Origin: an uncultured Gammaproteobacteria bacterium
Lineage (GTDB): Bacteria > Patescibacteriota > Patescibacteriia > JAHIZJ01
Direction of reading: 5' to 3'
DNA length: 51,853 bases
Assembly (NCBI GenBank): GCA_964594455.1
Contig: CAZQLY010000010.1
Coordinates: forward strand, 1-51,853
This document shows, one piece after another, positions 2,163 through 42,325 of the stretch. Under the pieces are notes generated by a model that ran no database searches, was not told the DNA's origin, and saw only the letters and a program-made list of their open reading frames with translations. The position numbers were made by a program, and so were the translations under genes. Position 1 is the stretch's first letter. Each line of letters begins with the position of its first letter.

Positions 2163-2666
2163 TTAGCGGTTCTGGGCGGGGGTTGAAACGAAGGAACAGA
2201 GTTGCGCATAGACAACAGCCGGAGGCTCGACCAGCGGTTCGACAGTCTGCGCTCGGATCCGCGCCTCGACTTTTCCGTCGAGATTGCGAACGAACGTGAC
2301 CGTCGAAGGCCCCGTGTCAATCGGAACAATCGTCTTGAGATCCTCGTAGGCCACCCGGACGTACGAAACCACATAGGGCTCATCTTGAACGGGTACCACC
2401 ATGTCCAGCAGGATCGCTCGACTGGCTTTCAGGGTCTCCGAACTCTTGGCCCGAATCACCTGAAAATCCTCGAGCAAGTATTCCTGCCCGATTGCCGGAG
2501 TGAACTCGCTGGCGCTGGCCAATACGACCTTGGTCTTCTCCTCAACCACTGTCCGTGGTAAGAAATGACGCAAGGCGCCCGCTCCTACAACCAGGACGAC
2601 GACCAGGATGGCCACGAACCAGTTGTACCAGTGCCCACGCGCATCACGCACCATTCCTAGAAACAT
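2163..2666 (-). CDS. Hypothetical single-pass membrane protein (GC-rich unit)
   Basis: N-terminal TM segment (WFVAILVVVLVVGAGAL); SD AAGGAGGGGTGAT directly before ATG at 2666. Confidence 0.7.
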   Translation of the reverse strand: MFLGMVRDARGHWYNWFVAILVVVLVVGAGALRHFLPRTVVEEKTKVVLASASEFTPAIGQEYLLEDFQVIRAKSSETLKASRAILLDMVVPVQDEPYVVSYVRVAYEDLKTIVPIDTGPSTVTFVRNLDGKVEARIRAQTVEPLVEPPAVVYAQLCSFVSTPAQNR

Positions 2667-2731
2667 ATCACCCCTCCTTGGGTAATGAGCTCCCTGCCTC
2701 AAGAGACTCCTCGGGTACTACACGAAGACCC

Positions 2732-2760
2732 ATACTATCATAGCTTAATAAATATGTCAA
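2732..2760 (-). promoter_or_regulatory. sigma70-type promoter
   Basis: TTGACA-N17-TAGTAT with TG extension on minus strand. Confidence 0.6.
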
Positions 2761-2765
2761 CCCCC

Positions 2766-2918
2766 ATGCAACACGAGGATGATATTGAAAAACAACTTGA
2801 AGAAAAAACCCGCCGCCGCCGTCACAAGAAAAAACCAAAAATGAAAGTGAGCGGCCGGAGTGTTTTACACTTAAAAAGGGTGATAGCTGAGAAGGGTTCC
2901 AAAAGTCCTAAAAAATGA
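2766..2918 (+). CDS. Small basic hypothetical protein
   Basis: Lys/Arg-rich 50-aa ORF (RRRRHKKKPKMKVSG); start uncertain. Confidence 0.5.
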   Translation: MQHEDDIEKQLEEKTRRRRHKKKPKMKVSGRSVLHLKRVIAEKGSKSPKK

Positions 2919-2927
2919 AACACTCCA

Positions 2928-2956
2928 TTGACAAAACAACCCTTATTTGATAGTTT
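2928..2956 (+). promoter_or_regulatory. sigma70-type promoter for secG
   Basis: TTGACA-N17-TAGTTT with TG extension. Confidence 0.55.
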
Positions 2957-13109: not shown

Positions 13110-13388
13110 GTGGAAGATCAGGAAGTGGATCAATCGCCCGTTACTGGCCCTTTTTTCAAACTTACTCGGTCACAGCAGATGCGCCGGATCTGGGGTTCGA
13201 TGGATCGTGCTTTCCGTCTGACTGTCCTTCTCAGAAACGGGCGAGATGTGGTTGGCGAGTACTGCGGCTTCTTGAGCTGTCTCAACGAACTCGATCTCTG
13301 GGACGAGGCTGGCGAAGTCTTCACTGTTTCTACCACAGACATCAGGGATGTCGATCTGCCACCCAAACCCAGGTTCAGCTACATTTGA
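13110..13388 (+). CDS. Hypothetical small protein, possible Sm/LSm-like fold
   Basis: LTVLLRNGRDVVGEYCGF..LNELDLWD resembles the Sm1 motif; followed by a terminator; start uncertain. Confidence 0.5.
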   Translation: MEDQEVDQSPVTGPFFKLTRSQQMRRIWGSMDRAFRLTVLLRNGRDVVGEYCGFLSCLNELDLWDEAGEVFTVSTTDIRDVDLPPKPRFSYI

Positions 13389-13390: not shown

Positions 13391-13416
13391 GCAACCTATT
13401 CTGGGTTGCTTTTTTT
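13391..13416 (+). terminator. Rho-independent terminator
   Basis: agcaacc-tattctg-ggttgct followed by a T-run. Confidence 0.75.
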
Positions 13417-13484
13417 ATAGATTGTTATAAGATATATGAACGCTCTTTTTTCAAACGTCCGCAACCAGAAAGGGGGGTGAAAAC

Positions 13485-14195
13485 ATGAAGCGGATTATAG
13501 AAGCGTTGTTGTCAGCGGTTGAATATCTGTTCCTGATGCTGTCGGCGTTGGTTAGTCTGTTCTTGTTCTTCGTCATGCAGCGAGCCCGGGTATTCGGAAA
13601 GAAGAACATGGTCTACCGAACCAACGTGGTAATCGCCTCAAACCACCAGACGTTTATCGACAGCTTTTTGGTCGGCACGGCCCTTTGCTTTCCGCACATG
13701 CTCTTCCACCCCAAGGTTGTCCCTTGGCATTTGGCCGCCTCTGAGAATTTCTTCAAGACCTGGGGTTATCGCTTAGCGGGCAGGTTCTGGCGCGCTATTC
13801 CAGTCAAACCGGGCCGCAAAGATCCAGAGCTCCTGAGACGGTTGAAACGTGAACTGGGAACCAAGGTGATCCATGTCTTTCCTGAGGGCGGACGTAGCCG
13901 AACCGGAGCCATAGGCAACGGCCATCCGAGCGTGGGGTTGTGGATTCATCATTGCCGTCCGGTGGTTATTCCAGTCAGAATCATTGGCATGGACAGGGTC
14001 CAGCCGGTCGGTCACCGCATGCTGCGCGGCCAGATCTTTGCAGTCAAAAGGCTGTTTCAGAAGATAGCTGTGATAGTTGGCCAACCGGTGGAGTTGTCAG
14101 ATCTGTACAGCCAATTACCGTCAACGGAGACGGCTTGCCTTATCACTGAGCGCATCATGGCAGCGATTCGTTCACTGGATCCATCGCAACGTTAA
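13485..14195 (+). CDS. 1-acyl-sn-glycerol-3-phosphate acyltransferase (PlsC-like)
   Basis: NHQTFID (HxxxxD) and FPEGGRS motifs; SD AAGGGGGGTGA. Confidence 0.88.
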   Translation: MKRIIEALLSAVEYLFLMLSALVSLFLFFVMQRARVFGKKNMVYRTNVVIASNHQTFIDSFLVGTALCFPHMLFHPKVVPWHLAASENFFKTWGYRLAGRFWRAIPVKPGRKDPELLRRLKRELGTKVIHVFPEGGRSRTGAIGNGHPSVGLWIHHCRPVVIPVRIIGMDRVQPVGHRMLRGQIFAVKRLFQKIAVIVGQPVELSDLYSQLPSTETACLITERIMAAIRSLDPSQR

Positions 14196-14229
14196 AAAAC
14201 ACCTGAGCTGGGTTCGGGTGTATTTTTTT
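14194..14229 (+). terminator. Rho-independent terminator
   Basis: acacctgagc...gttcgggtgt stem plus T-run. Confidence 0.7.
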
Positions 14230-14233
14230 AGTA

Positions 14234-14262
14234 TTGACTTTTTTCACCTTGACTAGTAAGGT
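14234..14262 (+). promoter_or_regulatory. sigma70-type promoter
   Basis: TTGACT-N17-TAAGGT. Confidence 0.55.
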
Positions 14263-14314
14263 ATTAAGTTAGCTCATTTCACCAACCATGAACTTGCAGG
14301 TATAAGGGGGTTGT

Positions 14315-14896
14315 ATGAACCTAAAAGCTTCCCTGAAGGGGTTCTGTTTGGGTGTCATTACCAAACTGCCTGCTGGTGATGAACCAGGAGAGATCACGAA
14401 CCGGGCAACGCAAGAACTCCATGCCTTTGTGCTTTCTGCTGGCCGCATCTTCATCATGTCAGAAGATGCCCCGGTATTGTCTGACCAACCGTTCGTCGGG
14501 ACACTGGGCCTTGGAATCGAACTGCTGTACCGAACTGATGCCAGCAGCCAAGCCGCTGTCTGGGGTGTTTACACCAACTTTGAGCAACTGGTACTAGACG
14601 CCCTTGATCTTCACATTGGTTCCATTACCATGCGCCCAAACGACTGCGGGGACATGGGATACGTGGAATCGGAGGGCACCGAATGCCTCCTGCTTCACGA
14701 GGACGGCTCACTTCTCCGATTGACCGACAACGGTCAGCTGGAGTTTGTGGAAGACGAGGTCGAGATGCCTCAAGCTGGAGAACGTCTGATCTTCCGGTTG
14801 GGCACAGAAGTCCCGGATCTAGCGTCCCCTTGGGCCGTCTATCGACAGTTCCGTGATCTCCTCTTTTCGTCTGTCCAATCACAAAAAGAGCACTGA
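14315..14896 (+). CDS. Hypothetical protein (GC-rich unit)
   Basis: 193-aa ORF with SD AAGGGGG, own promoter and downstream terminator. Confidence 0.65.
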   Translation: MNLKASLKGFCLGVITKLPAGDEPGEITNRATQELHAFVLSAGRIFIMSEDAPVLSDQPFVGTLGLGIELLYRTDASSQAAVWGVYTNFEQLVLDALDLHIGSITMRPNDCGDMGYVESEGTECLLLHEDGSLLRLTDNGQLEFVEDEVEMPQAGERLIFRLGTEVPDLASPWAVYRQFRDLLFSSVQSQKEH

Positions 14897-14922
14897 TTTT
14901 CTTTCAAGTGCTCTCTTTTTTT
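14883..14922. terminator. Bidirectional terminator
   Basis: aaaaagagcact...agtgctctctttttt between convergent genes. Confidence 0.75.
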
Positions 14923-15709
14923 ATTCAATGGCGTGTTTTATTAAATTGATCGGCTGCTTCAGCCAATCTTGCACAATAAATCTGGTCTTATCCGTGATAT
15001 CACTCAAATAAAACTTGTGATCGTGATTGCGGAACAGTTGCTGCTCCAATTCAGGCTGTTCTTTCAAATATCTTTTAACTTCCTCAACTACCTCCAGAGC
15101 TGGATCAATCAGCTGAATTTTCTTTCCTATCTTTTGCTGAATCACATCCTTAATGAGAGGATAATGAGTACAGGCCAATATGAGAGAATCAATGCTTTTT
15201 GACTTCAGGCTGGCTAAATAACGTTTGGTAATCATCTTAGTCTCGGGCTTATCGGTCCAGCCCTCTTCCACTAACGGAACAAATAACGGACAAGGCTGGG
15301 TAATTAATTCTAATCCGCTCTCTGGCGTCTGCAAACGTTTCTGGTAGATCTCGCTCCGAATCGTGGCCGTGGTGCCGATAATGCCAATTCTCCTGTTGCG
15401 AGTCATTTGTTTGACCTTTTTAATAGCTGGGCTGACTACTTCGAAAATCGGGACCGGAATATTCTTCCTCAGTTCATCCGCTGCTACTGAAGAGGCGGTA
15501 TGACAAGCAACTATGATCAGCTTAGCACCTTGTTCCACCAGGAACTGGGCATCTTGCAGGGCAAATTTAATAATTGTCTCGGGACTTTTGGTTCCATAGG
15601 GCGTCCGAGCCGTGTCACCAAAATATACAATTTGATATTCAGGCAGTTGTTTCAGAACTTCTTTGACAACGGTTAGTCCTCCAATGCCCGAATCAAAAAT
15701 CCCGATCAT
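14921..15709 (-). CDS. murI: Glutamate racemase
   Basis: IGIFDSGIGGLTV, PYGTKS, ACHTAS and LACTHYP motifs. Confidence 0.96.
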   Translation of the reverse strand: MIGIFDSGIGGLTVVKEVLKQLPEYQIVYFGDTARTPYGTKSPETIIKFALQDAQFLVEQGAKLIIVACHTASSVAADELRKNIPVPIFEVVSPAIKKVKQMTRNRRIGIIGTTATIRSEIYQKRLQTPESGLELITQPCPLFVPLVEEGWTDKPETKMITKRYLASLKSKSIDSLILACTHYPLIKDVIQQKIGKKIQLIDPALEVVEEVKRYLKEQPELEQQLFRNHDHKFYLSDITDKTRFIVQDWLKQPINLIKHAIE

Positions 15710-22095: not shown

Positions 22096-22160
22096 ATGTG
22101 AAGGAAGGTCGACGAAGACCCTCCGTCTCTATATTATACATATATGAATTGTTGTCAAAT

Positions 22161-22210
22161 AAAAAAGAGGTGGTTGATACCCGCCTCTGGTGAGGGTGGT
22201 ACAACCACCT
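22161..22210 (-). terminator. Terminator of small GC-rich unit
   Basis: aggtggttg...caaccacct stem adjacent to an A-tract (T-run on minus strand). Confidence 0.65.
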
Positions 22211-22261
22211 AGCTTCAGTTCCGGGCGACTGTGCGCGCGTTACCGGCCGCCTTGTCTTGGG

Positions 22262-22411
22262 TCAGGAATTGCGCCGAGTCGCCCGCGTCGCGTCGTTCTT
22301 CGAGTTGGCCGTGCTCTCCGTGCTCTTCTTGCGGAAGCGGGTCGCCTGCGAGGTCGTCTCGTCGATCGCGTTCCATCGATTGAAAGGGGCCAGACACATC
22401 GTCTCGAACAT
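22262..22411 (-). CDS. Putative 49-aa peptide (MFETMCLAPFNRW...)
   Basis: SD GGAGGTG just before ATG; upstream TTGACT-N16-TATAAT (22513-22540); downstream terminator. Confidence 0.45.
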   Translation of the reverse strand: MFETMCLAPFNRWNAIDETTSQATRFRKKSTESTANSKNDATRATRRNS

Positions 22412-22543
22412 CGTACACCTCCATCGTTGAGGTTTACCGGGAAGGACTCTCCGTGCACCATTCATGATGCTGAACACAGTTACTCCACTCAACGAATAGT
22501 ACACCACTTTTTATTATACACATTTTTCACAAATAGTCAAAAT

Positions 22544-23846: not shown

Positions 23847-23949
23847 AGGTCTTTGGTTATACTACAACAGTTTTTACATTTTTATTTCGTTTTGTCAATA
23901 TTTTCACAAATAAAAAACCTCTCGTCGGCAAAACGAAAGGCATGTTACC

Positions 23950-24948
23950 CTAGATAAAGGGCGAAAGAGCTAGATAGATCAAGGCGGCAATCACACCGGC
24001 ACCAGGAATAGTCACTACCCAGGCAAAAATGATCTGCTTGACCACTGTCCAGTTGAGATTGGACAGTCGACGAGCCGCTCCCGTGCCTAGGATGGCCGAA
24101 GAGATTACGTGGGTAGTAGATATCGGCGCACCTACCAGAGAAGCAGTAAAGATCACCGCTCCGCCAGCCGTTTCCGCGGCACAACCATCCATGGGCTCGT
24201 GTAGTTTGACCATCTTAGTGCCCATAGTGCGGATGATCCGCCAGCCGCCAACAGAGGTTCCTAGACCGATAGCCAGAGCGGAAGCAGCCCGCACCCAAAT
24301 CGGCACGTAGAATTCATGGAGTAATCCGCACGACACCATGGCGATTGTAATGATGCCCATCGCGTTCTGCGCGTCATTCATCCCATGGGTGAATGAAACG
24401 GCTGAGGCAGACAGTATCTGGAGTCGCTTGAAGAACTTAGCTGACTTGAGATATGGAGTCCGCCAGGAAACCCAAGCGAAAACGGTTAGAACAATCCCTC
24501 CTATCACTACACCGGCTATCGGCGATACGATCATGGCGATCAGTATTTTTTTCAAACCGGCGAAGATCAGCACCGAGAAATCCAATCGTGACCTGAGAAG
24601 CGCGACGCCGACTAACCCGCCCACTAGAGCGTGAGTGGAGCTGGATGGAAGTCCGAAGTACCATGTCAGATAGCCCCAGCCGATTGCTCCCAGGAGCGCA
24701 GCCAGTAGCATGGGTAGAGTGATCACTTCGCCCGAGACAACCCCCTTACCAACGGTGTAGGCCACTGCTGTGTGCGAGAGCGCCCCGACAAAGTTCAATG
24801 TCCGGGCCAGAATGATGGCTTGTCGGGCCGAAAGAGCCCTGGTCGAAACGGTGGTAGCAATGGCGTTGGCCGCATCATGAAAGCCATTGACGAAGTCATA
24901 CCACAATGCGCCGCCGATGATTAGTATGAGCAACAAGCTGTCAGACAT
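23950..24948 (-). CDS. Inorganic phosphate transporter, PiT family
   Basis: NGFHDAANAIAT, GLPSSSTHAL, HGMNDAQ and PISTTH motifs. Confidence 0.96.
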   Translation of the reverse strand: MSDSLLLILIIGGALWYDFVNGFHDAANAIATTVSTRALSARQAIILARTLNFVGALSHTAVAYTVGKGVVSGEVITLPMLLAALLGAIGWGYLTWYFGLPSSSTHALVGGLVGVALLRSRLDFSVLIFAGLKKILIAMIVSPIAGVVIGGIVLTVFAWVSWRTPYLKSAKFFKRLQILSASAVSFTHGMNDAQNAMGIITIAMVSCGLLHEFYVPIWVRAASALAIGLGTSVGGWRIIRTMGTKMVKLHEPMDGCAAETAGGAVIFTASLVGAPISTTHVISSAILGTGAARRLSNLNWTVVKQIIFAWVVTIPGAGVIAALIYLALSPFI

Positions 24949-25738
24949 TCTTCATCACCATCCTTTTCAGGGTGGTAGCAACCGTGTCACAGGCATCACT
25001 TGCCCGCTCCAATGCCTTCATAACCTCACGCTGCAGGAAAAAGTGAAACACCCTGATACACAACTCCCTGTTATCACGAGTCACCCCGACTATCCGTGAC
25101 AGAAATCCGTGAGCCTCTACTTGGCTAAGGTGATCGCTTCCCGACAGCTCCTGTTCAATTCTAGCCAGCTCAGCCATACCGGCGATGACCCCGGATATGC
25201 TAGCGATTCCTTCAGCTAGAGCCCGGTGATGAATTTCGTCAGCCTGCGCTTCAAATTCGTGAATTGACTTACAGCCCGCATCAATGTGATGCCGTTTACG
25301 CAGATTACTGATGACTCCACGTACCTGTTGGCAAGATGCCTGCACCACGTCAGCCAACTTCCCCACCTCAGCAAGGCCTGCGATCTCTCTGACGTGAAGA
25401 CGATAGATGACATAACGCGAGGCAAATTGTTCCATCCAATCCATGATGTCATCCAGGGAGCCGATCAGATGAGTGATATCATCCCGGTCAAACGGTGGCT
25501 GGGGCGCAACGTCTAGCAGGTTGATAGTCCGAGCCACCAGGCCGTCACACTCCGTCTCCATTCGCTTCAGTCTCTCCGCAATTATGCTCTGGCCGTCGCT
25601 CTCCTTAGCCGCGACCAAATCAACCACCAGGCCACTAGCCTCAACTAGCTTACCGGCCATGGCATCAAAGATCTCGTAGAATTCCTTGTCTGATGGCGGT
25701 AGCAAACGCAACCCGCGCAACCATCCAAATCCCTTCAT
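24941..25738 (-). CDS. DUF47/PhoU-like phosphate transport regulator
   Basis: ETECD, PFDRDDI, EAQADE and LERASDAC motifs; directly upstream of PiT; SD AAGGAGGGGG. Confidence 0.88.
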   Translation of the reverse strand: MKGFGWLRGLRLLPPSDKEFYEIFDAMAGKLVEASGLVVDLVAAKESDGQSIIAERLKRMETECDGLVARTINLLDVAPQPPFDRDDITHLIGSLDDIMDWMEQFASRYVIYRLHVREIAGLAEVGKLADVVQASCQQVRGVISNLRKRHHIDAGCKSIHEFEAQADEIHHRALAEGIASISGVIAGMAELARIEQELSGSDHLSQVEAHGFLSRIVGVTRDNRELCIRVFHFFLQREVMKALERASDACDTVATTLKRMVMKNV

Positions 25739-25796
25739 TTACCCCCTCCTTTTTGTCAAACAGCAAATGCGCTTTCTAGCGTTGAGAAATCATATT

Positions 25797-25825
25797 AACT
25801 TATCAATTAATACACCTACTGTCAA
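25797..25825 (-). promoter_or_regulatory. sigma70-type promoter for the DUF47-PiT operon
   Basis: TTGACA-N17-TAAGTT; boxA-like TGCTGTTTGACAA at 25753-25765. Confidence 0.6.
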
Positions 25826-25827
25826 TT

Positions 25828-25890
25828 AAAAAAAGGCGGCTTCTCATCTTGCTGGCGCAGGGGCACGAGCAAACAAGATGATTAGCCGCC
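25828..25890 (-). terminator. Long interrupted hairpin terminator
   Basis: ggcggct/agccgcc and tcatcttg/caagatga stems next to an A-tract. Confidence 0.6.
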
Positions 25891-25984
25891 ATCTGGCGAA
25901 ACTGGGAACGCGTTTAGCCCGATCTATTCGGGCAATAGCGTCACGGAGGAATGTACAGTCGGTAGATCACAGCAGACCTCCTGG

Positions 25985-26074
25985 TCAGTCGGTGAACGAC
26001 CTCGGCGCGAAACCCCACGTGGTATCTCCGCAGCATGGGGGCCGAGCCATGACCACCAAACGTCTTCTCACCAT
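25985..26074 (-). CDS. Putative 29-aa peptide (MVRRRLVVMARPPCCGDTTWGFAPRSFTD)
   Basis: SD GGAGG 7 nt before ATG; upstream TTGCAG-N17-TATGTT. Confidence 0.4.
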   Translation of the reverse strand: MVRRRLVVMARPPCCGDTTWGFAPRSFTD

Positions 26075-26191
26075 ACTGACGCCTCCATCGTACCTATGGT
26101 TACGCTGAATTTGCGCCCCCACTGCTTCTGCCCATCCACACAAGCGCAAACAGCAAGGCAAACATAGCATATCGTGGATTTTTCTGCAAAT

Positions 26192-26220
26192 AAAAAAGAG
26201 GTTCGGCTCAACCGAACCTC
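26192..26220 (-). terminator. Enolase terminator
   Basis: gaggttcgg/ccgaacctc perfect stem plus T-run on minus strand. Confidence 0.85.
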
Positions 26221-26244
26221 GTAGATTCAATTGGTAGCGTACCG

Positions 26245-27561
26245 CTACTTAATGCCTCGGGCGTAAAGCTCGGGCACGCTAGTGAACGCCCTCCATCCCG
26301 GGTAAACCGCACGGCTTCCCAGTAACCGTTCAATCCAGATCAAGCGATTGTACTTGCTTCCCCGATCCGAACGTGCCACAGCCCCAGGCTTGATGAAACC
26401 GGAGCCCAAGGCCACAGCAATATCGGCGTAATCTGGGAATTCGGTATCACCGCTCCTCTGACTGACGCAAGTGGTCATCCCGTGGGAATGGGCAATCTGG
26501 CCAGCCCTCATGGCTCGAGAAACGCAGCCGATCTGATTGGTCTTGACCAGTAGACTGTTGGCAAAACGCTCCTTGGGCGGTAGGCTCTCGGCCAACAAAA
26601 CCGGGTTGGTGCAGAAGCAGTCGTCCCCGATCAGCTGGATCCGCTGTCCCAACCGCCTATACATCAGGCGCCAGGCAGCGTAGCCCTTCTCGGCCGCACC
26701 GTCTTCGATACTGACGATCGGGAACTCACCCACCAGCTTACACCAGTAGTCAACCAAGCCAGCGTCATCAAGATGCTCACCATCCGGCTCGACCTGGTAG
26801 CCATGCTCGGAAAAGAAGGCAGAGGCAGCCGGATCGAGAGCAAAGCAGATGTCCTCGCCTGGCTTACGACCGGTCTTCTCGATCGCTTGCTGACCAAAGA
26901 TCAGAGCTTCGCGGTTCGACTCGAGGTTCGGAGCAAAGCCGCCCTCGTCTCCAACCGTGGTCGGATGACCGGCTTCCCTGAGCAGATCGGCCATGGCATG
27001 CTGGCATTCAACTAACCAGCGGACTGCTTCGGCAAACGTCGGAGCCCCAACCGGAGCCCACATGAATTCCTGCACCTGAAGATTGTTGCCAGCATGCTGT
27101 CCGCCGTCAAAGAACTTGCACAGCGGAACCGGCAGTTGACAGACCGTCGGACCGCCCAGGAACTCATACAGCTCCTGTCTCCGACTCATGGCAGCCGCTT
27201 TGGCCACAGCATAGGAAACTGCTGTGACTGAATTGGCTCCGATCCTGCTGAGGTTCCCGGTTGTATCGAGACCACACATTGCCTCATCAACCGCCACAAG
27301 GTCAAAGGGTGACATCCCAACAATCCTTGAAGTGATCTCATTGTTGACCGCTTGGACGGCTTCTTGAACACCCTTGCCCCTGTAACGACTCCTGTCACCG
27401 TCTCGCTTCTCGTGTTGCTCTTTCTCTCCGGTTGAAGCACCGGAAGGAGACATGGCATAGGCTCGAGTACCATCAGTCAGTTCGACCATTGCCATGACAT
27501 TGGGGTTGGGGCGTGAATCAATGCCCTCCACGCCGACAACCGACTGGATTTCGATACCCAT
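26245..27561 (-). CDS. eno: Enolase (divergent)
   Basis: PSGASTG, RYRGKGV, QEFM, GDEGGFAP, SIEDG, GDD and KxNQIG motifs; SD AAGGAGG before ATG 27561. Confidence 0.9.
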   Translation of the reverse strand: MGIEIQSVVGVEGIDSRPNPNVMAMVELTDGTRAYAMSPSGASTGEKEQHEKRDGDRSRYRGKGVQEAVQAVNNEITSRIVGMSPFDLVAVDEAMCGLDTTGNLSRIGANSVTAVSYAVAKAAAMSRRQELYEFLGGPTVCQLPVPLCKFFDGGQHAGNNLQVQEFMWAPVGAPTFAEAVRWLVECQHAMADLLREAGHPTTVGDEGGFAPNLESNREALIFGQQAIEKTGRKPGEDICFALDPAASAFFSEHGYQVEPDGEHLDDAGLVDYWCKLVGEFPIVSIEDGAAEKGYAAWRLMYRRLGQRIQLIGDDCFCTNPVLLAESLPPKERFANSLLVKTNQIGCVSRAMRAGQIAHSHGMTTCVSQRSGDTEFPDYADIAVALGSGFIKPGAVARSDRGSKYNRLIWIERLLGSRAVYPGWRAFTSVPELYARGIK

Positions 27562-27667
27562 CGGCAGATTCCTCCTTGCTGTAACTGGGTTGGCAGTGAA
27601 CAAAAAAGAACCCCCTAACCTTAAAAGAGTTGAGGGGTTGTGTCAAGATAATATTTTGTTTCTTTGT

Positions 27668-29586: not shown

Positions 29587-29598
29587 TGTTTTCTTTTA

Positions 29599-30626: not shown

Positions 30627-30630
30627 ATTT

Positions 30631-32226: not shown

Positions 32227-32258
32227 AAAACAGAGGTGGAAAAAGATCCACCTCTTTC
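32225..32258. terminator. Bidirectional terminator
   Basis: agaggtgga/tccacctct stem between convergent genes. Confidence 0.75.
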
Positions 32259-32268
32259 AAGGTCGTGA

Positions 32269-32910
32269 CTAACCGGCGTGACGCCGCTTGCCAACGCTGA
32301 GAATGAAGCCCAGCGCGATCGCCAGCATGGCCGCCATAAAGACTTGCCACTCCGGCGGCAACGAGAAGGTGATCGTGTGAGCCAGAACCCAGAAGAACCA
32401 CATCGTCTTGGGAATGAACCGGAAGGCGAATTGCCGGTCAATGTCCTTGGCGAACCAGTAAAGACTAAACAGACCGAGTCGTTCCTTGATAAGGAAGTTG
32501 AAGTACTCGTGCGTCATCATCATGGACCAGGCGTAGCCACTCAGCAGGTTAATCCACAGACTCTTGGAAAAGGCTGGAAACCAGCTCCACCAAAGCCCCT
32601 TGCTGATCAGGAAATCAACACCTCCCGAGATCAGCGGAAAGGCGAAAACGAACCAGATACCGAAGAAGCCCCAGACGATCGCTCGACCAAACGCCCAGTC
32701 AACCGCCCAGCGCCTGCGGGCAATGCCGCATTTGATGATCTCACCGGTCGTACCCAAGAAGAAGAGCTTGATGAAGCCCATCGCGATCGGGCTCGCCTTC
32801 ACGGAGCTGGTGAAACTGTCCGTGAAGAACAGGGCCCAGCCAATCACGAAAAGCGCGCCGGCGAACATCACCACTGTCCAGAATACAGACCCTCTGTTTT
32901 CTTCCGCCAC
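32269..32910 (-). CDS. Multi-pass membrane protein (Mpv17/PMP22-like)
   Basis: 5-6 TM segments; FW.LAHTITFSLPPEWQV; SD AAGGAGGT before GTG. Confidence 0.7.
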   Translation of the reverse strand: MAEENRGSVFWTVVMFAGALFVIGWALFFTDSFTSSVKASPIAMGFIKLFFLGTTGEIIKCGIARRRWAVDWAFGRAIVWGFFGIWFVFAFPLISGGVDFLISKGLWWSWFPAFSKSLWINLLSGYAWSMMMTHEYFNFLIKERLGLFSLYWFAKDIDRQFAFRFIPKTMWFFWVLAHTITFSLPPEWQVFMAAMLAIALGFILSVGKRRHAG

Positions 32911-33053
32911 TTGCGACCTCCTTTTACCGAAACCCTCCTCTTACCGCCAAGCAAAGCCAGATTCTCATGCCAAAGAACGTACTCCCTAATTCTTCGGAGC
33001 CTTTATTCTTACCATATCAAAAATCCTCGTGTCAAATAAAAAAACGAGTCGTG

Positions 33054-33245
33054 TTACTTGGACTCGCTTTTTGGCTTTGGCCAGTTGCTCTGAGGAAGCT
33101 GCGTCATCCTCAGAGGACGTCCTTGGCCTCCCATTCTCTCGAAAGTGGACTTGGTCATATTGCACCCACCTCCCAAACCCTGGCAGATAGGCGACGTAGG
33201 CGGATTACCGTGTCCGCATTGTGGACAACACCAAAGAATAGCCAT
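33054..33245 (-). CDS. Small zinc-ribbon protein
   Basis: WCCPQCGHGN...ICQ...C; SD AAGGGGG before ATG 33245; terminator at 33036-33073. Confidence 0.55.
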   Translation of the reverse strand: MAILWCCPQCGHGNPPTSPICQGLGGGCNMTKSTFERMGGQGRPLRMTQLPQSNWPKPKSESK

Positions 33246-33330
33246 TAGCTCTATCCCCCTTCTTAAAAAGAACAACTCTGTACTTTACAGAGTCTTTTAT
33301 TTCTAACAAATATTAATCTAAATGTAAATA

Positions 33331-35017: not shown

Positions 35018-35137
35018 AGTTGTTTATTATAAACCCAAAAAGTGTAAATGTAAATGTTGACTTTATGCGCAATAATGGTAAACTGGCTGTCTGCAAGTAG
35101 GGATGGTTTTTGTCCTTTCAAGGAGGGAGGGTTACCA

Positions 35138-35530
35138 ATGAAGGATCTTGTGATTGACGATCTTCGTCTGTTGACCAGTGAGGCTGGGCTCAGAATTGCT
35201 GAGCATCTAGGTGTAGCTGGCGAGAAGCGTGATGAGGTGGCGGCTCAGGTTATCATTCAGCAGTTGCCAGTTGTCCTGTCCGCCTATGGTGAGATGGGGT
35301 TCGAAACTGGCCCGGTTATGTATCTGGCCGGGGACGACTACGAGATCGAGGATCCAACGCTGGGCGAAGAGTTCTGCAGTCCTGATTGGCTCAAGGGGCG
35401 GGCTTTACTGGTCTATTCCCACTGCCTGGCTGTTGGTCTGGCGCCCTCAATCGTCTTCATCCGCAACATCGAGCGGAACCGAACCAGGTTCGCCATCGTG
35501 GCCGACTGGGATCCTACACCGTCTGCTTAA
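35138..35530 (+). CDS. Hypothetical protein (GC-rich unit)
   Basis: SD AAGGAGGGAGG before ATG 35138; promoter TTGACT-N16-TAAACT at 35057; terminator at 35519-35548. Confidence 0.65.
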   Translation: MKDLVIDDLRLLTSEAGLRIAEHLGVAGEKRDEVAAQVIIQQLPVVLSAYGEMGFETGPVMYLAGDDYEIEDPTLGEEFCSPDWLKGRALLVYSHCLAVGLAPSIVFIRNIERNRTRFAIVADWDPTPSA

Positions 35531-35545
35531 CAAGCGACGGTTTTT

Positions 35546-35875
35546 TTATAGCAAACAATCACACTTCTTGCGCGTTAGGATTTCTTTCTGAGCCGAAGGT
35601 TTATCAATATAGTAAATCTGTCTTTTGGCTCCTCTAGCCAGTTTCTTATCTAAAGGCGAATTGTGATTATAGCCTCGGCGCCTCATTTCTTTAACCAAAA
35701 GATTGTGCCGAAAATAAAGCGCTTTTAACCGTCCTTTCCAGCGCAATGTTTCTGGGTGCCGGCTATAGCCCTTTTTGTTTTTAGTTAAAACCGTCCAGAC
35801 AGCATGCACTTCTCTGTGTTCGCCCAACAGATGTTTGTAGCATAATCTTATGGGTGATATGTCCCAGACTCTCAT
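35546..35875 (-). CDS. Pyrimidine dimer DNA glycosylase / endonuclease V-like
   Basis: MRVWD..LC..HLLGEHRE, GYSRHPET.RW and EMRRRGYNH motifs. Confidence 0.85.
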   Translation of the reverse strand: MRVWDISPIRLCYKHLLGEHREVHAVWTVLTKNKKGYSRHPETLRWKGRLKALYFRHNLLVKEMRRRGYNHNSPLDKKLARGAKRQIYYIDKPSAQKEILTRKKCDCLL

Positions 35876-36714: not shown

Positions 36715-36799
36715 GTTTTTATAGTATCACCTATTCTTAGAGTAGGCAATAGGCCAATTGTGCAGAAACAATAAGATCATTAAAAAAGGAGAAAATAAC

Positions 36800-37342: not shown

Positions 37343-37372
37343 CTATTAAACCTTTAACGAGGAGACGACAAA

Positions 37373-37594: not shown

Positions 37595-37603
37595 GACCAA
37601 CGC

Positions 37604-37631
37604 AAAAAAGGAGTTTGACCGCTCCTTTTTT
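37604..37631. terminator. Bidirectional terminator
   Basis: aaaaaaggag...ctcctttttt. Confidence 0.85.
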
Positions 37632-37632
37632 G

Positions 37633-38388
37633 TTATTCTGGAAAAAATGAAAGTAACCCTAAATATACGATGGCACTTCCGATCATTCCAATAACAAATT
37701 GATAAGCGTGCTTGTATATCTTCACTAAAGGCAATAATTCATGAATGGCAACATAAATCATTGCTCCTCCAGCAAAAGCTAATGAAAGATGGTTGGCGCT
37801 ACTAGATATATTCGCTGTTAATAATCCAAGAATTGCCCCGGCTGGTTCAGCTAAGGCTGATATAAGGGCTAGCTTGATTAAAAACTTCATTTTTTTTCCA
37901 GCCATAATAAATGGCACAGCCATGGCATACTCTTCGGGAATATTGTGTAACGCTATGGAAATAGCAATGAATATACCAAAAGTGGGCGAGACTAAAAACG
38001 AATTAGTTAGAGCAAAGCCTTCGGGAAAATCATGCAATATTAATCCGGCAGCTACTAAAAAAGCTACCCGGTGTAAATGACTGCTGACTGCCCCCTCCTC
38101 TTCGGTTAAGTGTTTATGCGGTATTAAGTAGTTCAATAACGCGATAAAAATCATGCCGCATAAAACAAAGACTGATACTTTGGTTACGCTAACGGCCTTA
38201 AGGGCTTCGGGAAACAATTCCAGAAAAGATATCAGCAACATTATACCCACTGAGAAGCCTATACCAAAAGAAGTCCATTTCCTTCTATTTTTTAACAAAT
38301 AGGCCAAAGCCACTCCGATGACAGTGGTTATTCCAGAAAGTAGGGCCAATCCCAATATGGCAACAGTAGTGGTAAATGAAATATCCAT
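37633..38388 (-). CDS. ZIP family metal transporter (ZupT-like)
   Basis: LHDFPEG, LHNIPEE, AEPAGA and HELLP motifs. Confidence 0.93.
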   Translation of the reverse strand: MDISFTTTVAILGLALLSGITTVIGVALAYLLKNRRKWTSFGIGFSVGIMLLISFLELFPEALKAVSVTKVSVFVLCGMIFIALLNYLIPHKHLTEEEGAVSSHLHRVAFLVAAGLILHDFPEGFALTNSFLVSPTFGIFIAISIALHNIPEEYAMAVPFIMAGKKMKFLIKLALISALAEPAGAILGLLTANISSSANHLSLAFAGGAMIYVAIHELLPLVKIYKHAYQFVIGMIGSAIVYLGLLSFFPE

Positions 38389-38396
38389 AACCAATC

Positions 38397-38879
38397 TTAC
38401 AAAAGATTATCTACAATAAATTTCAGCTCAGGATGAAACTTTTCTCCAGCCTCGATCATTTCTTTGATCTTGTCTATTGAAAAAAACTCCACCTTTTCCA
38501 CCTCCTCTTTGTTAACATTAAACTTTCCGGAATAAATTACTTTGTAGGTAGTCAAAAACTTTTTATTACCTCTAGTATCTTTATATATGTCCTTTGAGAA
38601 ATATTCAAAAGGCATTTTCAAACCTAGCTCTTCATACAACTCTCGTTGAGCTGCCTCTTCATATGTTTCACCAGCATGGACATGTCCGCCGGCAGTCGTG
38701 CTCCAGTAGCCCGGGGCAAAGGCCAGGTTTTTGTTTCTCAGCTGCAAGCCCAATCTACCCGCTTCATCAAATACCAAAACATGGACTATCCGGTGAGTAG
38801 GAAACTCATCATAAATAGCCTCGCGTTCTCTCTGACCGATTACTTCATCATTGTCGTTAACAATATCTAGCAGTTCCAT
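38397..38879 (-). CDS. NUDIX hydrolase (Idi/YfcD-like)
   Basis: GGHVHAGETYEEAAQRELYEELG Nudix box. Confidence 0.92.
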   Translation of the reverse strand: MELLDIVNDNDEVIGQREREAIYDEFPTHRIVHVLVFDEAGRLGLQLRNKNLAFAPGYWSTTAGGHVHAGETYEEAAQRELYEELGLKMPFEYFSKDIYKDTRGNKKFLTTYKVIYSGKFNVNKEEVEKVEFFSIDKIKEMIEAGEKFHPELKFIVDNLL

Positions 38880-40696
38880 TATTGGTAGATATTATTTTCT
38901 ATTGTCTTAATCAAAGCCATTAGGGCGTGCTGGGTATAATCTATGCGTTGATCATTCGCTGTTAGGGAAAACTTAAATCCGCCTACTGTTCTTTTTGAAT
39001 TAACCACATAAAACGCGCTTTCTTCGGTGAATTGCGTGTTGAGTATGAACGGCACGCTAAGTTGGATGGCCTCTAAATATTTTTTCTCATGTTTTTTGTC
39101 ACCGATCAGCCGAGCTAATAGATAAGCATCATTAATCCCTTCTGTTTGCGTGGAGGTGTTTAATCTGGGATCTTTTTTGGGAAATCCTCCTATCTGGTCG
39201 GGATATCGACTCTTGGTAATAAAGTGGTGATCTAATATCCAATCAATCATTTCAAAAACAAAATCAGCTACTTCGGTCTTGCCTGTTTCCTGAAACAAAA
39301 GATAATTAGCCTGCGTATGCCAAGGAATAAATGATGTGTTTTTATTGTCCCTCCAATAATCACGATAGTATTCAAAACCCTTCTCTACCGACTTCAAATA
39401 CTTTTCTTCACCGGTAGCTTGGTAAACTTTCATCAGGGCTAACATAGCTTCGCCCGGATAATAATCGACTCCAGTATTCTTTGAAGAATTGAAATAAGTT
39501 TGATAGGAACCATCTCCGTTCTGCTGAGCTAATATTCCATCAGCCAGTTTTTGAATCCATTTTTCCGTATCAGGAAACTTATCAAACTCCAATAAAGTCA
39601 TCAGGATAAAAGCATTATAACACAGCTTGGATTCTCCTTCTTCCCAGATGTAGCAGTAGTCATCATTACAACGACTGAGATCAATATAATAATCTAGGGT
39701 TGATTTAATTATTGAATCGAGAGAATCAATACCTAAAAAATCCTGCAGTCTGGATATAGCCCAAGCAGTCGCTAGTTGACGGGTGTGATTTTGGTCTGTG
39801 GAATAGCTATTGTCATTAGGGAAGTATCGATATTCCAACATGCCCGTGCTAAGCTTAACATTATTCAGGAGCCAATCTGGGATTAATTCCAATCTTGCTT
39901 GTATTAGTTCATTATCAATTTCAGCTGGATCAATTAAAACATTATACCGATATAGGTTAACCGGTTTCTGGTCTCGGATAGCCAGAAATTGTAAATCATC
40001 AAATTGATATATTTCAGCCCGCGGGTCAGAATAACAGTTTTCATCAAGATCACCCTTTTTGCATAATTGCTCCAATGTTTTTTCCAAAGTATAGCGTTTA
40101 GTAATAGGCACTGAGGCCTTGAAAAAAGCTTCTCGCTGACCATCTAAATATAGTTCTAAGGAATGAATGCCTAACTCGATTTCATCTTCCAAGTCTTTGA
40201 ACGAAGTGGGAGCTAGTTTTTTGTTATACGAAACATCAAAGACTATTTTAATATCATCCAGTTCTGTTTTGCTGATTACACCACCAAATCTTTTGTCGTT
40301 AACGCAGCGTTCAACCGCTTCTTCAAGATCCTTGCGAGTACGCTCTGGCTCACTGATGTCAAACCAGCCTTTTTGCGAGCAACGAACAGATCCATTATTT
40401 AAAAAAGTGAGATAGATAGAATCATACCCTTCTAATTCCGGCACGTTGAAATACTTATCATCAGCCTTATCAAACATTCTATCCAGATACCAATAAACGT
40501 ATTGAACGTAGATTTCTTTATCTGATTCGAGAATTTCTAAATCACCTTTTTTTGACTCAAACATTTGAGACAATACGTTCGGTTCTCCATCATTGGACAG
40601 CTCTATCGGGTTAATAACGGTAAAATAACCGATTCCACCAATAAGAATCAGCAATGTTAGAAATGAGGGTAAAAAATGTCTGGCTAAAAAATTCAT
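38879..40696 (-). CDS. Membrane-anchored protein, AMMECR1-like N-domain plus alpha/alpha-barrel C-domain
   Basis: N-terminal TM; DKRFG, LGIHSL and LCKK AMMECR1-like motifs; YYPGEAMLAL and RIDYTQHAL helical-barrel motifs. Confidence 0.65.
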   Translation of the reverse strand: MNFLARHFLPSFLTLLILIGGIGYFTVINPIELSNDGEPNVLSQMFESKKGDLEILESDKEIYVQYVYWYLDRMFDKADDKYFNVPELEGYDSIYLTFLNNGSVRCSQKGWFDISEPERTRKDLEEAVERCVNDKRFGGVISKTELDDIKIVFDVSYNKKLAPTSFKDLEDEIELGIHSLELYLDGQREAFFKASVPITKRYTLEKTLEQLCKKGDLDENCYSDPRAEIYQFDDLQFLAIRDQKPVNLYRYNVLIDPAEIDNELIQARLELIPDWLLNNVKLSTGMLEYRYFPNDNSYSTDQNHTRQLATAWAISRLQDFLGIDSLDSIIKSTLDYYIDLSRCNDDYCYIWEEGESKLCYNAFILMTLLEFDKFPDTEKWIQKLADGILAQQNGDGSYQTYFNSSKNTGVDYYPGEAMLALMKVYQATGEEKYLKSVEKGFEYYRDYWRDNKNTSFIPWHTQANYLLFQETGKTEVADFVFEMIDWILDHHFITKSRYPDQIGGFPKKDPRLNTSTQTEGINDAYLLARLIGDKKHEKKYLEAIQLSVPFILNTQFTEESAFYVVNSKRTVGGFKFSLTANDQRIDYTQHALMALIKTIENNIYQ

Positions 40697-40775
40697 ATTT
40701 CTGTCTAATTATAGCAGAAACGAAATAATAAAAAAACGGCGTCCTCAATTAAGAGATCCGCCGGTTTTGAGCTGT

Positions 40776-42128
40776 TCACGCCTTGGCTGCGGGCGCAAAC
40801 TGCTCCAGTTCGCTCTCCAGTGTCTGGTCGCCCACGACCTTCAGGCTGTAGGTAACCCGGGTATTGTCACCTGGGATCTCAACCACCCGCCGCAGATCGA
40901 TCGGAGTGCCGATCACTACTGTGTCGACTTCGCCGGAATCAACTGCGGCCTGGATCGTGTCCCGGAGATCAGCCATCTGTTGTTCTCCATAGCCCATAGC
41001 TGGCAAAAGCACGCCGATCCCAGGATAGGTTTCGAAAGTGCCCTTGAGTGACCCTTGGAGGTAAGGACGAGGATCAACGATACTGGCTGCGCCATACTTC
41101 TTGGCGGCCACGGTGCCGGCACCCGTCTTCATACCGCCGTGCGTACAGGTCGGTCCGTCTTCGACCACCAGTACACGCTTGCCGTTGATCAGTAGAGGAT
41201 TATCGGCAACCACCGGGGACTTAGCCGTGATGATGGTGGCACTCGGATTGTGGTCCTTGATAACTCCCTCCATCTGGCGAATGTCCGCCTGTGCGGCTGA
41301 ATCAACCTTGTTGATGATTACCACGTTGGCCATCAGTAGATTGATGAAGCCGGGATAGTACTCGGTCTCATGACCCAGCCTCAGCGGATCAACTACCACG
41401 ATCAGCAGATCCGGCCGGTAGAACGAGGTGTCGTTGTTACCGCCGTCCCAGACGATCACATCGGCTTCCTTCTCGGCCTCGGCTAAGATATCACCGAAAT
41501 CAACTCCGGCAAAGATCGGACGACCTTCAGCGATATGAGGCTCGTATTCCTCCATCTCTTCGATCGTACACCGCTGCTCCGTGAGATCCTCAATCATACC
41601 AAACCGCTGACAACGCTGGAAATTGAGGTCGCCGTCATAGGGCATCGGGTGCCTGATCGGAACCACTCGATGTCCCTGGCTTTGGAGAATCCGACACACC
41701 TCGCGGGATGTCTGACTCTTGCCGCAGCCGGTCCGGACCGCACACACCGCCACCACCGGTTTTGATGACCGAATCATAGTCTCGATTGGAGAGAGAAGAG
41801 TGAATCTCGCTCCAGCCGCATTGACTCTCGACCCGATCTGCATCACCCGATTATGTGGCAGATCTGAGTAGGAAAAGACCGCTTCATCCACGCCCCTCTC
41901 ATGGATAAGCTGGGACAAGCCAGCCTCGTCCACGATAGGAATCCCGTCGGGATAAAGCCGACCAGCTAGCTCGGATGGATAGACACGTCCCTCAATCCCC
42001 GGAATCTGGGCAGCGGTGAAGGCAACAACTTCCACAAACGGATCGCCCCGAAAGACGACATTGAAGTTGTGGAAATCGCGTCCTGCCGCACCAATGATAA
42101 CTACCCTGCGTCGACCACTCATGGACAT
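40776..42128 (-). CDS. Arginine synthetase ArcE-like / cDPG synthetase-related P-loop protein
   Basis: IGAAGRDFHNFN, AVRTGCGKSQT, RHPMPY, CTIEEMEEYEPH, WDGGNND and EDGPTCTHGGM motifs. Confidence 0.85.
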   Translation of the reverse strand: MSMSGRRRVVIIGAAGRDFHNFNVVFRGDPFVEVVAFTAAQIPGIEGRVYPSELAGRLYPDGIPIVDEAGLSQLIHERGVDEAVFSYSDLPHNRVMQIGSRVNAAGARFTLLSPIETMIRSSKPVVAVCAVRTGCGKSQTSREVCRILQSQGHRVVPIRHPMPYDGDLNFQRCQRFGMIEDLTEQRCTIEEMEEYEPHIAEGRPIFAGVDFGDILAEAEKEADVIVWDGGNNDTSFYRPDLLIVVVDPLRLGHETEYYPGFINLLMANVVIINKVDSAAQADIRQMEGVIKDHNPSATIITAKSPVVADNPLLINGKRVLVVEDGPTCTHGGMKTGAGTVAAKKYGAASIVDPRPYLQGSLKGTFETYPGIGVLLPAMGYGEQQMADLRDTIQAAVDSGEVDTVVIGTPIDLRRVVEIPGDNTRVTYSLKVVGDQTLESELEQFAPAAKA

Positions 42129-42210
42129 TCCTCCCTAGGTTTTTCAGCCCTACTATCCCTAGTATTTGGGACAGTCTGTTTCGCGAACACAAAAAAAGAG
42201 CAAGTAGATA

Positions 42211-42239
42211 AACTTACTAAGTATTTTGGCTATTGTCAA
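42211..42239 (-). promoter_or_regulatory. sigma70-type promoter
   Basis: TTGACA-N17-TAAGTT followed by TGCTCTTTT. Confidence 0.55.
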
Positions 42240-42325
42240 CCCGGATTTATTACTTTCTAATCTATCTCAAAATATTTCTTTTTATGGACGCAAAATACTT
42301 GATCAGCGTTCTTCCCGCTATTTTT

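Follow-up and report, generated by a model that had tools for sequence, protein, structure and literature searches.

Translation that disregards the Shine-Dalgarno (SD) sequence has been described in the Bacteroidia (Jha et al. 2021, PMC7797042; McNutt et al. 2023, PMC9976891), where, according to the portions of these papers cited here, most genes have no SD, the anti-SD is canonical, and rpsU, the gene for ribosomal protein bS21, carries an extended SD that serves autoregulation, bS21, bS18 and bS6 sequestering the anti-SD; virtually no other strong SD occurs there. Here we describe a genome of the Patescibacteria in which most genes are likewise SD-less and about one tenth form a separate class of GC-rich, SD-led transcription units. 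Such units had been noticed by a first-pass annotation of a 51,853-nucleotide stretch (contig CAZQLY010000010.1 of assembly GCA_964594455.1, from an uncultured bacterium placed by GTDB in Patescibacteriia, JAHIZJ01), hereafter the window.

In sequence, the likeness to the Bacteroidia extends to the canonical anti-SD and to the extended SD of rpsU. It ends with the GC-rich genes, 73 of 119 of which have an SD of at least 6 nucleotides (nt): here around 100 SD-led genes make up a compositionally distinct class, and the host belongs to the Patescibacteria. Atypical acquired regions in this phylum were reported by Gios et al. (2025, PMC12455944), who ascribed to transfer up to 13% of the length of Patescibacteria genomes. 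As far as the cited part of that report goes, about 10% of genes are atypical, with foreign affinities and metabolic functions, as in our genome; the words 'Shine', 'ribosome binding' and 'promoter' do not occur in the text as searched, and ancient transfers are described as losing their compositional signature, whereas here the signature persists across genera and follows the background of the host. Finally, the regulation of protein-coding genes by BoxA and Nus factors has been surveyed by Baniulyte et al. (2017, PMC5725501), whose consensus, GYTCTTTAANA, has, in the part cited here, 0-7 full matches per gammaproteobacterial genome. Its first seven nucleotides are the GYTCTTT core found on the sense strand of 5' leaders in this study, in a genome that also encodes Nus factors, but here some 40-50 leaders are involved and only the 7-nt core is shared.

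The GC-rich units also call to mind phage morons, lone genes with a promoter on one side and a terminator on the other. Both are autonomous promoter-gene-terminator units placed between resident genes. Unlike morons, the units described here lie outside prophages and stay in the same place from genus to genus, and some encode housekeeping-type enzymes, for example histidyl-tRNA synthetase (HisRS). A full-text literature search, which did not cover supplementary tables, turned up no account of SD-led GC-rich units or of how they are conserved, nor any of boxA-type mRNA leaders in the Candidate Phyla Radiation (CPR).

Two expression architectures in one genome

The window is the entire contig C10 of a 58-contig, 1.34-Mb genome (G000; GC 0.426, completeness 91.6%, contamination 3.8%; C numbers denote its contigs, G001-G037 relatives, and L numbers loci read in relatives). 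The organism names carried by close homologs also point to the Patescibacteria group. Genes were called by a crude two-model codon score that takes the longest or best-scoring open reading frames (ORFs), giving 1249 genes, 1140 of them on 18 main contigs. Several small contigs of the bin (C15, C18, C21, C27, C36 and others) have 58-69% GC and look like contamination from other organisms; they were excluded from every class count. Gene GC is bimodal, with modes at about 0.41 and 0.53, and the genes were divided into an AT-rich class (GC below 0.46, n = 960), an intermediate class (n = 61) and a GC-rich class (GC at least 0.49, n = 119). The two kinds of genes first seen in the window thus exist genome-wide.

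Composition-matched control sites for the SD search were in-frame start codons deep inside genes, where an SD of at least 5 nt precedes 5.8% of 9847 sites in the AT-rich class and 4.6% of 1058 sites in the GC-rich class. At the 5'-most start of a gene such an SD is present in 71 of 960 AT-rich genes and in 57 of 119 GC-rich genes; when any of about four candidate starts is allowed, the counts are 176/960, which is the chance level, and 97/119; an SD of at least 6 nt precedes 61/960 and 73/119, respectively. Since its SD rate matches the internal control, the AT-rich class is at chance, in agreement with the earlier remark that AT-rich genes of the window start without an SD.

The classes differ in their transcription signals as well. 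The GC-rich genes make up 87 units, 67 of them single-gene, scattered on all large contigs, and their median upstream gap is 143 nt versus 24 nt for AT-rich genes. A TTGACN-N16-18-TANNNT promoter lies upstream in 51/102 GC-rich, 10/37 intermediate and 66/391 AT-rich cases (shuffle means 0.9, 0.5 and 4.6). The preferred -10 hexamers are TAAGNT or TAAAAT in the first class, and TATAAT and TGCTATAAT-type extended -10 boxes in the last. A terminator-like hairpin with a T-run follows 74/119 GC-rich, 26/61 intermediate and 116/960 AT-rich genes. Amino-acid usage of the GC-rich class resembles that of a GC-richer organism (Lys 0.035 vs 0.075, Arg 1.5-fold higher). The genome thus has two clearly distinct expression architectures, neither of which can be put down to chance.

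Three simple accounts of the difference were considered and set aside. The GC-rich class does not consist of the highly expressed genes: the ribosomal-protein operon on C5 belongs wholly to the AT-rich class and is SD-less. An alternative sigma factor for the GC-rich class is unlikely, as the search yielded just two sigma-70-family genes, of which one is ECF-like. Leaderless initiation was rejected as the general mechanism of the AT-rich class, given that extended -10 boxes ending 6 nt before the start codon form only a modest peak (13 among 436 genes). The presumed primary sigma factor (C11:30350-30587) gives a Sigma70_r2 match in two pieces in different frames (204 and 223 amino acids), and a frameshift or an assembly error is possible there.

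Foreign affinity and conservation of the GC-rich class

The Pfam search of 107 further GC-rich genes identified many enzymes of nucleotide metabolism (a PyrB-PyrI fusion, PyrF, PurF-, PurN- and PurB-like proteins, phosphoribosyl pyrophosphate synthase, phosphoribosyltransferases and purine nucleoside phosphorylase), as well as HutH, HutU, HisRS, GlmS, a GlmU-like protein, a MurA-type enzyme, fructose-bisphosphatase, acyl carrier protein, an OPT transporter, a DEAD helicase, several peptidases, and a retroelement reverse transcriptase with bAvd; most of the remaining genes have no Pfam match at E <= 1e-5. The last two proteins form a diversity-generating-retroelement pair at C4:80679-82089, where neighbouring orphans are also GC-rich; the leader at C4:79071 is conserved in the sister genus G005. 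Upstream of the GC-rich PyrB-PyrI fusion, G000 and G005 both retain a short SD-led stretch with a hairpin and a T-run behind it (C1:186300-186500; G005 C3 about 6900-7100), and it could be a transcription attenuator.

The enolase of the window illustrates the foreign component. It is a second copy: a native-type AT-rich enolase lies at C1:17794-19062, and the GC-rich xenolog is 34% identical to it; a scan of genome contigs with the xenolog gave a single locus. Copies 72-73% identical to the xenolog occur in G004, which has four enolase matches, whereas five of the six family relatives match it at only 36-39%. Outside the family, the nearest homologs belong to non-CPR phyla for all three GC-rich genes searched, and the phyla differ by gene: Chloroflexota/Anaerolineae, Acidithrix and alphaproteobacteria for the enolase (about 50% identity), Zixibacteria for the phosphate transporter PiT (65-67%), and Acidobacteria, Bacteroidota and Ignavibacteria for HisRS (48-54%). 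In 400 kb of the outgroup family (G018), reciprocal best hits were obtained for 2/119 GC-rich genes versus 122/960 AT-rich genes. The first-pass annotation had taken the metabolic genes among the units as an argument against horizontal transfer; these data do not support it.

The acquisitions are not recent. Comparison with 400 kb, that is one third, of the sister genus G005 gave 213 reciprocal best hits, in which both partners are GC-rich in 15, both AT-rich in 183, GC-rich in our genome and AT-rich in G005 in one, the reverse in four, with 10 involving the intermediate class. Only 5 of the 203 GC-rich or AT-rich pairs are therefore discordant, and gene neighbourhoods are conserved. Within this third of G005, hits were found for 16/119 GC-rich and 187/960 AT-rich genes, which does not bear the mark of recent or patchy gain. 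As class membership and synteny are shared with G005, the acquisitions must be old. The GC-rich orthologs are on average 44.7% identical in amino acids, the AT-rich ones 60.1% (Mann-Whitney p = 9e-5), and GC at third codon positions (GC3) is 0.605 in G000 and 0.625 in G005 for the former versus 0.404 and 0.522 for the latter.

The link between GC and SD was observed in all six relatives sampled. In G001 and G002 (two other genera of the family), G018, G027 and G037, with median gene GC from 0.41 to 0.515, an SD of at least 5 nt precedes 53-100% of genes lying more than 0.08 above the median GC (G018 has only two such genes) and 12-25% of genes in bins up to the median. In G005, where absolute bins were used, the figures are 78-86% above GC 0.52 and 17-25% below. 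The orthologs of the GC-rich enolase in G004 and at locus L060 are themselves GC-rich islands (0.55 and 0.53, flanks about 0.40) with a promoter, an SD and a terminator.

We consider it likely that this bacterium runs a two-way system of gene expression, in which an old, foreign, SD-dependent GC-rich class is kept apart from the core genome. The core genes, about 84% of those called and with GC of about 0.41, lie in tightly packed operons, mostly behind TATAAT or extended -10 promoters, and have no SD; their leaders are short and A/T-rich, or in some cases absent. About 10% of the genes (119 in 87 units) form insulated, mostly single-gene transcription units. The typical unit is read from a TTGACA-17-TAAGNT/TAAAAT promoter and has a leader of 40-80 nt, a strong SD that can pair with the canonical anti-SD kept by the 16S rRNA of the family, an ORF about 0.10-0.12 above the genome G+C, and its own intrinsic terminator. 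The class would consist mainly of ancient acquisitions from diverse non-CPR donors that became fixed in the family, covering nucleotide synthesis, the second enolase, PiT, HisRS, cell-wall precursor enzymes, peptidases and many orphans. The need for an SD may lie in the structure of G+C-rich mRNAs: if structured mRNAs are unable to use the SD-independent start of this lineage, they would depend on SD:anti-SD pairing. The sequences show the two architectures, their conservation and the foreign affinity of the three genes searched; the mode of translation initiation, the role of the leader motif and the cause of the lasting G+C surplus are inferred.

Some points weigh against this explanation. 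The foreign affinity was established by homology searches of three GC-rich genes; the gene calls are crude, with start sites inferred, and some small GC-rich ORFs are possibly false. Foreign origin by itself does not explain the composition: where the background is 0.41, 0.515 and 0.50, the second GC mode stands at about 0.53, 0.60 and 0.59, respectively, and the G+C surplus has outlasted the saturating divergence of the orthologs. A surplus that follows the host background and survives such divergence does not look like un-ameliorated foreign DNA, and some class-specific selection or bias would have to hold it.

Anti-SD, bS21 and alternative explanations of the GC-rich class

The 3' end of the 16S gene is missing from our assembly, and the anti-SD was read in five family relatives, all of which end in GGATCACCTCCTTTCTA, the canonical anti-SD whose confirmation the annotation had called for. 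Among 14 loci read in the taxonomic class, 11 are canonical, two variant and one unreadable. The variant tails, CCATCTCC at L106 (G019) and TTATCTCC at L112 (G009), replace CACCTCC and fit the loss of the anti-SD motif reported for some Parcubacteria (PMC9297842, in the portion cited here).

In G000, G001, G002, G003 and G005 the rpsU gene (C3:103748-104011 in G000) starts with GTG behind an extended SD, GGGAGGTGA; in G018 the SD is GAGGTGA, so that all six genomes examined carry one (the loci outside G000 being L162-L166). A TGgTATATT-type promoter precedes the gene in the five family genomes. Because the conserved extended SD is the hallmark of rpsU autoregulation in Flavobacteriales (PMC9976891; PMC7797042, as far as cited above), a class-wide translational switch gated by bS21 is a real possibility, albeit one we judge unlikely. 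By this account bS21, with bS18 and bS6, would hide the anti-SD so that most ribosomes are SD-blind, and ribosomes lacking bS21 would translate the roughly 100 SD-led genes, the whole class switching as a block with the growth state. It would explain why the bulk of genes is SD-less despite an intact anti-SD. On the other hand, a constitutively free anti-SD accounts for the same sequences, and, according to the cited part of PMC9976891, Flavobacterium johnsoniae has an obvious SD on rpsU only, so a regulon of 100 genes would be without precedent.

Quite unlikely, in our estimate, is a recent piecemeal transfer of self-contained, moron-like cassettes that still carry the promoter, SD and terminator of the donor and whose composition has not yet drifted. 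It draws on the single-gene organization with own promoter and terminator, on the amino-acid usage of a GC-richer organism, on the uneven distribution of the GC-rich enolase among relatives, and on the share of Patescibacteria genomes ascribed to transfer by Gios et al., but it is difficult to reconcile with a class and synteny shared with a sister genus at no more than 60% identity between core proteins, or with GC-rich orthologs that have diverged to 44.7% identity at a GC3 of about 0.6 in both genomes. Moreover, despite the diversity of donors, the leaders have in common a recipient-specific motif and a promoter type that is also used by the rRNA promoter (TTGACA-17-TAAGAT), and the G+C offset tracks the background of the recipient.

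That the class is an artefact of chimeric metagenome assembly or of gene-calling bias in GC-rich stretches can practically be dismissed: although the bin does contain the small foreign-looking contigs of 58-69% GC and the ORF caller at times picks a wrong frame in GC-rich DNA (e.g. 32278-33039(+) instead of 32269-32910(-)), the islands are embedded in long contigs, gene order is repeated in independently assembled relatives, a contig from another sequencing run crosses the AT-rich/GC-rich junction at 23604-24317, Pfam domains support many GC-rich ORFs, and the SD enrichment was gauged against class-matched internal controls.

The GYTCTTT leader motif

The first-pass annotation had pointed to a boxA-like motif in most leaders of the GC-rich units. 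On the sense strand, GYTCTTT is present in 37/105 upstream regions of the GC-rich class, 8/42 of the intermediate and 9/436 of the AT-rich class, against means of 1.9 (maximum 6), 0.7 and 7.1 in mononucleotide shuffles; on the antisense strand the counts are 4/105, 0 and 20. With T, A or G permitted at position 5 the motif occurs in 49/105 GC-rich versus 16/436 AT-rich leaders. An unbiased comparison of all 7-mers ranked AAGGAGG, GTTCTTT, GCTCTTT and TTGACAA as the best discriminators of GC-rich leaders. Taken together, the shuffle test and the 7-mer ranking establish that the motif is real and specific to the class; the refuting outcome named in the annotation, a frequency no higher than in shuffled sequence, did not occur. 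Of the annotation's interpretation, a separate, SD-dependent class with a shared leader motif is thereby supported, while Nus-type control and a life-stage regulon are possibilities. Within the class it is associated neither with gene length (p = 0.23) nor with the presence of a promoter (p = 0.33). It lies 23-100 nt upstream of the start codon, and in orthologous leaders of G005 a GYWCNTT element is kept while the remainder diverges.

In this genus GYTC(T/A/G)TT opens most leaders of the GC-rich class, either right at the predicted transcription start or adjoining it. Our leading reading, tentative and at less than even odds, is that the element is a BoxA-like NusB/NusE site, which would give structured mRNAs an rRNA-like elongation. 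The 7-nt core coincides with that of BoxA, and nusB and nusE (S10), the presence of which the annotation had wanted confirmed, are encoded together with nusA and nusG. A full boxA-like sequence, CGCTCTTTAACAACAA, lies at C12:30337, 68 nt past a TTGACA promoter and ahead of an SD-led GC-rich ORF beside the rRNA operon; this stretch (C12:30269-31340), with its SD-led GC-rich ORFs, is directly upstream of the rRNA promoter at 31362. The rRNA leader itself contains GCTCGTTAAAT about 215 nt before the 16S gene, and those of G002, G005 and G006 contain GTTCGTT at -227 to -229.

Several observations speak against a BoxA. Conservation falls off past the core, where position 8 is T at a frequency of 0.53 and A, two positions further along, reaches at most 0.48; a subset of motifs has GYTCTTTGAAAAC-like tails. 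The rRNA-leader element of the family is GYTCGTT, which differs from the mRNA motif at position 5. Some motif matches are T-tracts of upstream terminators. In G001 and G002 the two gene classes are present and the motif is not enriched (3/28 vs 5/139 and 1/36 vs 10/145). A search for Rho (domain Rho_RNA_bind) found none in G000 and none in five relatives of 98-100% completeness, which leaves the classical anti-Rho role without a target. These last features, together with the position of the element at the transcript start, set it apart from the BoxA system described in the cited part of PMC5725501.

That position suits equally well a somewhat doubtful alternative, namely that the motif is not an RNA element but belongs to the core promoter. 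It would then combine a Y-R-Y start element, in which transcription starts at the purine, with a T-rich initially transcribed region, and would tune start-site choice, promoter escape or nucleotide-sensitive initiation. Of 73 motif matches, 34 have a strict promoter within 60 nt upstream, and 21 of these 34 begin 5-10 nt past the -10 box, i.e., at the predicted transcription start, as suits a promoter or initial-transcript feature. When promoters are aligned on the -10 box, those of the GC-rich class show G at +6 (0.51) and are then T-rich to +16, while those of the AT-rich class are A-rich there. Start elements and 5' T-tracts have been described as lineage-specific promoter features (PMC12641261, in the portion cited), and the restriction of the motif to some genera fits this. 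The presence of pyrimidine genes in the GC-rich class also favors a promoter role. A promoter role is opposed by the 13 of 34 motifs that lie 13-30 nt past the -10 box, by an invariant GYTC core that is more specific than a T-tract, by the absence of the motif from the start site of the strong rRNA promoter, and by the full 12-nt boxA match 68 nt past its promoter on C12.

An anti-SD mimic appears very unlikely. In such a fourU-type or leader-RNA switch, UCUUU would pair with AAGGA of the SD, and the ribosome-binding site would stay hidden until the pairing is melted or displaced. Such pairing with the SD region is predicted by minimum-free-energy folding for 15 of 52 leaders, including a 15-bp helix in the enolase leader, but the other 37 leaders lack such pairing, the spacing between motif and SD is highly variable, and a purine-rich SD pairs with any pyrimidine tract.

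Implications

A wider reading, which we think improbable, is that a permanent second expression system operates in this class of Patescibacteria: genes captured from other phyla would stay unassimilated as G+C-rich, structured, insulated mRNAs, with BoxA-like, rRNA-style transcription in some genera and SD-only translation gated by bS21. Biased repair, or selection acting on the structure or stability of the mRNAs, would be the class-specific force holding their G+C about 0.1 above the drifting background. If so, roughly a tenth of the proteome could be switched as a block. The two-way system that we favor would itself show one bacterium running two modes of translation initiation over evolutionary time, sorted by gene origin. 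It would also mean that the signature of foreignness in base composition can be retained, which challenges the use of composition as a clock of gene transfer. For ultra-small symbionts, the class of SD-led genes, together with the GYTCTTT leader and the extended SD found on rpsU, would offer a testable handle on how borrowed metabolism is plugged into a minimal expression machinery. In practice, gene callers trained on a single start model will misplace the starts of one class in these genomes.

GC-rich units of the window

Pfam annotation of 59 ORFs in the window revealed core genes of the usual kind (among them those for UvrC, RNase J, TrpRS, two phosphomutases, an Elp3-like radical-SAM protein, parts of ABC transporters and an ECF-type sigma factor), between which the GC-rich units are interspersed (Table 1). 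The ORFs of the listed units have GC 0.53-0.62 and GC3 0.55-0.86, compared with GC 0.35-0.44 in 15 flanking genes, as had been proposed from a single sampled line.

Table 1. GC-rich transcription units and related features of the window, with their signals; 'start corrected' marks ORFs whose start was moved to an SD-preceded ATG
Feature	Position	Strand	Promoter	Leader motif	SD	ORF	Terminator	Remarks
167-aa ORF unit	2100..2790	-	TTGACA-17-TAGTAT (~2760)		AAGGAGGGGTGAT	2163-2666	below 2163	GC 0.575, GC3 0.685; no Pfam match; start corrected
92-aa GC-rich ORF	13110..13388	+	none found		0			GC 0.53; class uncertain
PlsC-type acyltransferase unit	13400..14240	+	-10 TAAGAT	GCTCTTT 13442-13448	AAAGGGGGGT	13485-14195	present	
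Unit of unknown function	14234..14930	+	TTGACT-17-TAAGGT	GCTCATT at 14272	AAGGGGG	14315-14896	T-rich	
Small-protein unit	22160..22540	-	TTGACT-16-TATAAT (22540-22513)		GGAGGTG	22262-22411 (49 codons)	long hairpin	GC3 0.86; no Rfam match for unit; start corrected
Two-gene GC-rich operon	23917..25830	-	TTGACA-17-TAAGTT		AAAAAGGAGGGGG	PhoU_div/DUF47 24941-25738; PiT 23950-24948	23941-23917	
GC-rich stretch	25840..26190	-						between two terminators; only tiny SD-led ORFs; no convincing Rfam match
Second (xenolog) enolase unit	26198..27650	-	TTGACA-17-TAAGGT	GTTCTTT 27605-27611	AAGGAGG	26245-27561	26220-26198	start corrected
Unit of unknown function	32232..33040	-	TTGACA ~33036	GTTCTTT 32972-32978	AAAAGGAGGT	32269-32910 (GTG start)	32255-32232	
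Small Cys-rich ORF	33040..33294	-		GTTCTTT 33267-33273	AAGGGGGA	33054-33245		start corrected
Unit of unknown function	35057..35560	+	TTGACT-16-TAAACT (35057-35084)		AAGGAGGGAGGG	35138-35530	present	start corrected
P-loop NTPase-like unit (weak CobW/CbiA matches)	40700..42245	-	TTGACA-17-TAAGTT	GCTCTTT 42195-42201	GGGAGG	40776-42122	present	start corrected

A strong SD had been ascribed to all units; a match of at least 5 nt was scored in 9 of 13, and two more have a run of four G (AAGGGGG), which leaves the 92-aa ORF, with none, and PiT, whose gene is coupled to the upstream PhoU_div/DUF47 gene that it overlaps. That most units have their own promoter was borne out, the strict TTGACN-16/17-TANNNT pattern being present in 7 of 13; beyond it stand the TTGACA ahead of the ORF at 32269 and the -10-only TAAGAT ahead of the acyltransferase gene. 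Hairpins with a T-run were likewise seen after the units.

The proposal of a shared leader motif held in part. Strict GYTCTTT was found in the leaders of the acyltransferase, enolase, P-loop NTPase-like and 32269-32910 units and before the small Cys-rich ORF, where it doubles as the T-tract of a terminator hairpin at 33294-33274 belonging to the upstream ABC-2 gene, and the unit at 14315 has GCTCATT; of the nine instances originally listed, three (TGCTGTTTG twice, TGTCCTTTC) are not matches. Counted over the entire window, the motif does not exceed chance (27 vs 20.5 +/- 5.0), so the window by itself is unable to settle the question of the motif; its enrichment lies in its position and emerges genome-wide. 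In a generic consensus scan of 22000-41999, promoter-like sites were not above shuffles (36 vs 33.7 +/- 5.9) and terminator-like sites slightly so (25 vs 18.2 +/- 3.9); it is the stricter promoter pattern and the comparison of classes that are informative, not the generic scan.

In the Rfam search the only match at the gathering score was a tRNA-Leu, and 21900-26400 gave no convincing match at E up to 1. The ORF proposed at 25985-26230 is doubtful: the GC-rich stretch there, about 350 nt long, has only tiny SD-led ORFs of about 29 and 9 codons, the first with Arg-Pro-Pro and the second ending in Ile-Pro-Pro. They could encode regulatory or arrest-type peptides, or the stretch could be an unrecognised RNA.

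Contigs from four DNA runs contain only related strains, which span AT-rich and GC-rich parts alike. One contig of run X3 links 23910 to 29029 with 20 other letters between; the joint is weak, with only 21 letters on one side, and, skipping 23911-29028, it would represent a variant without the PiT-enolase island and two neighbouring genes. About 300 nt past the promoter of the P-loop NTPase-like unit lies a fragment of an IS200-like Y1 transposase (42552-42872(-), 106 amino acids, weak Pfam match), the only mobility-related gene seen adjoining a GC-rich unit in the window.

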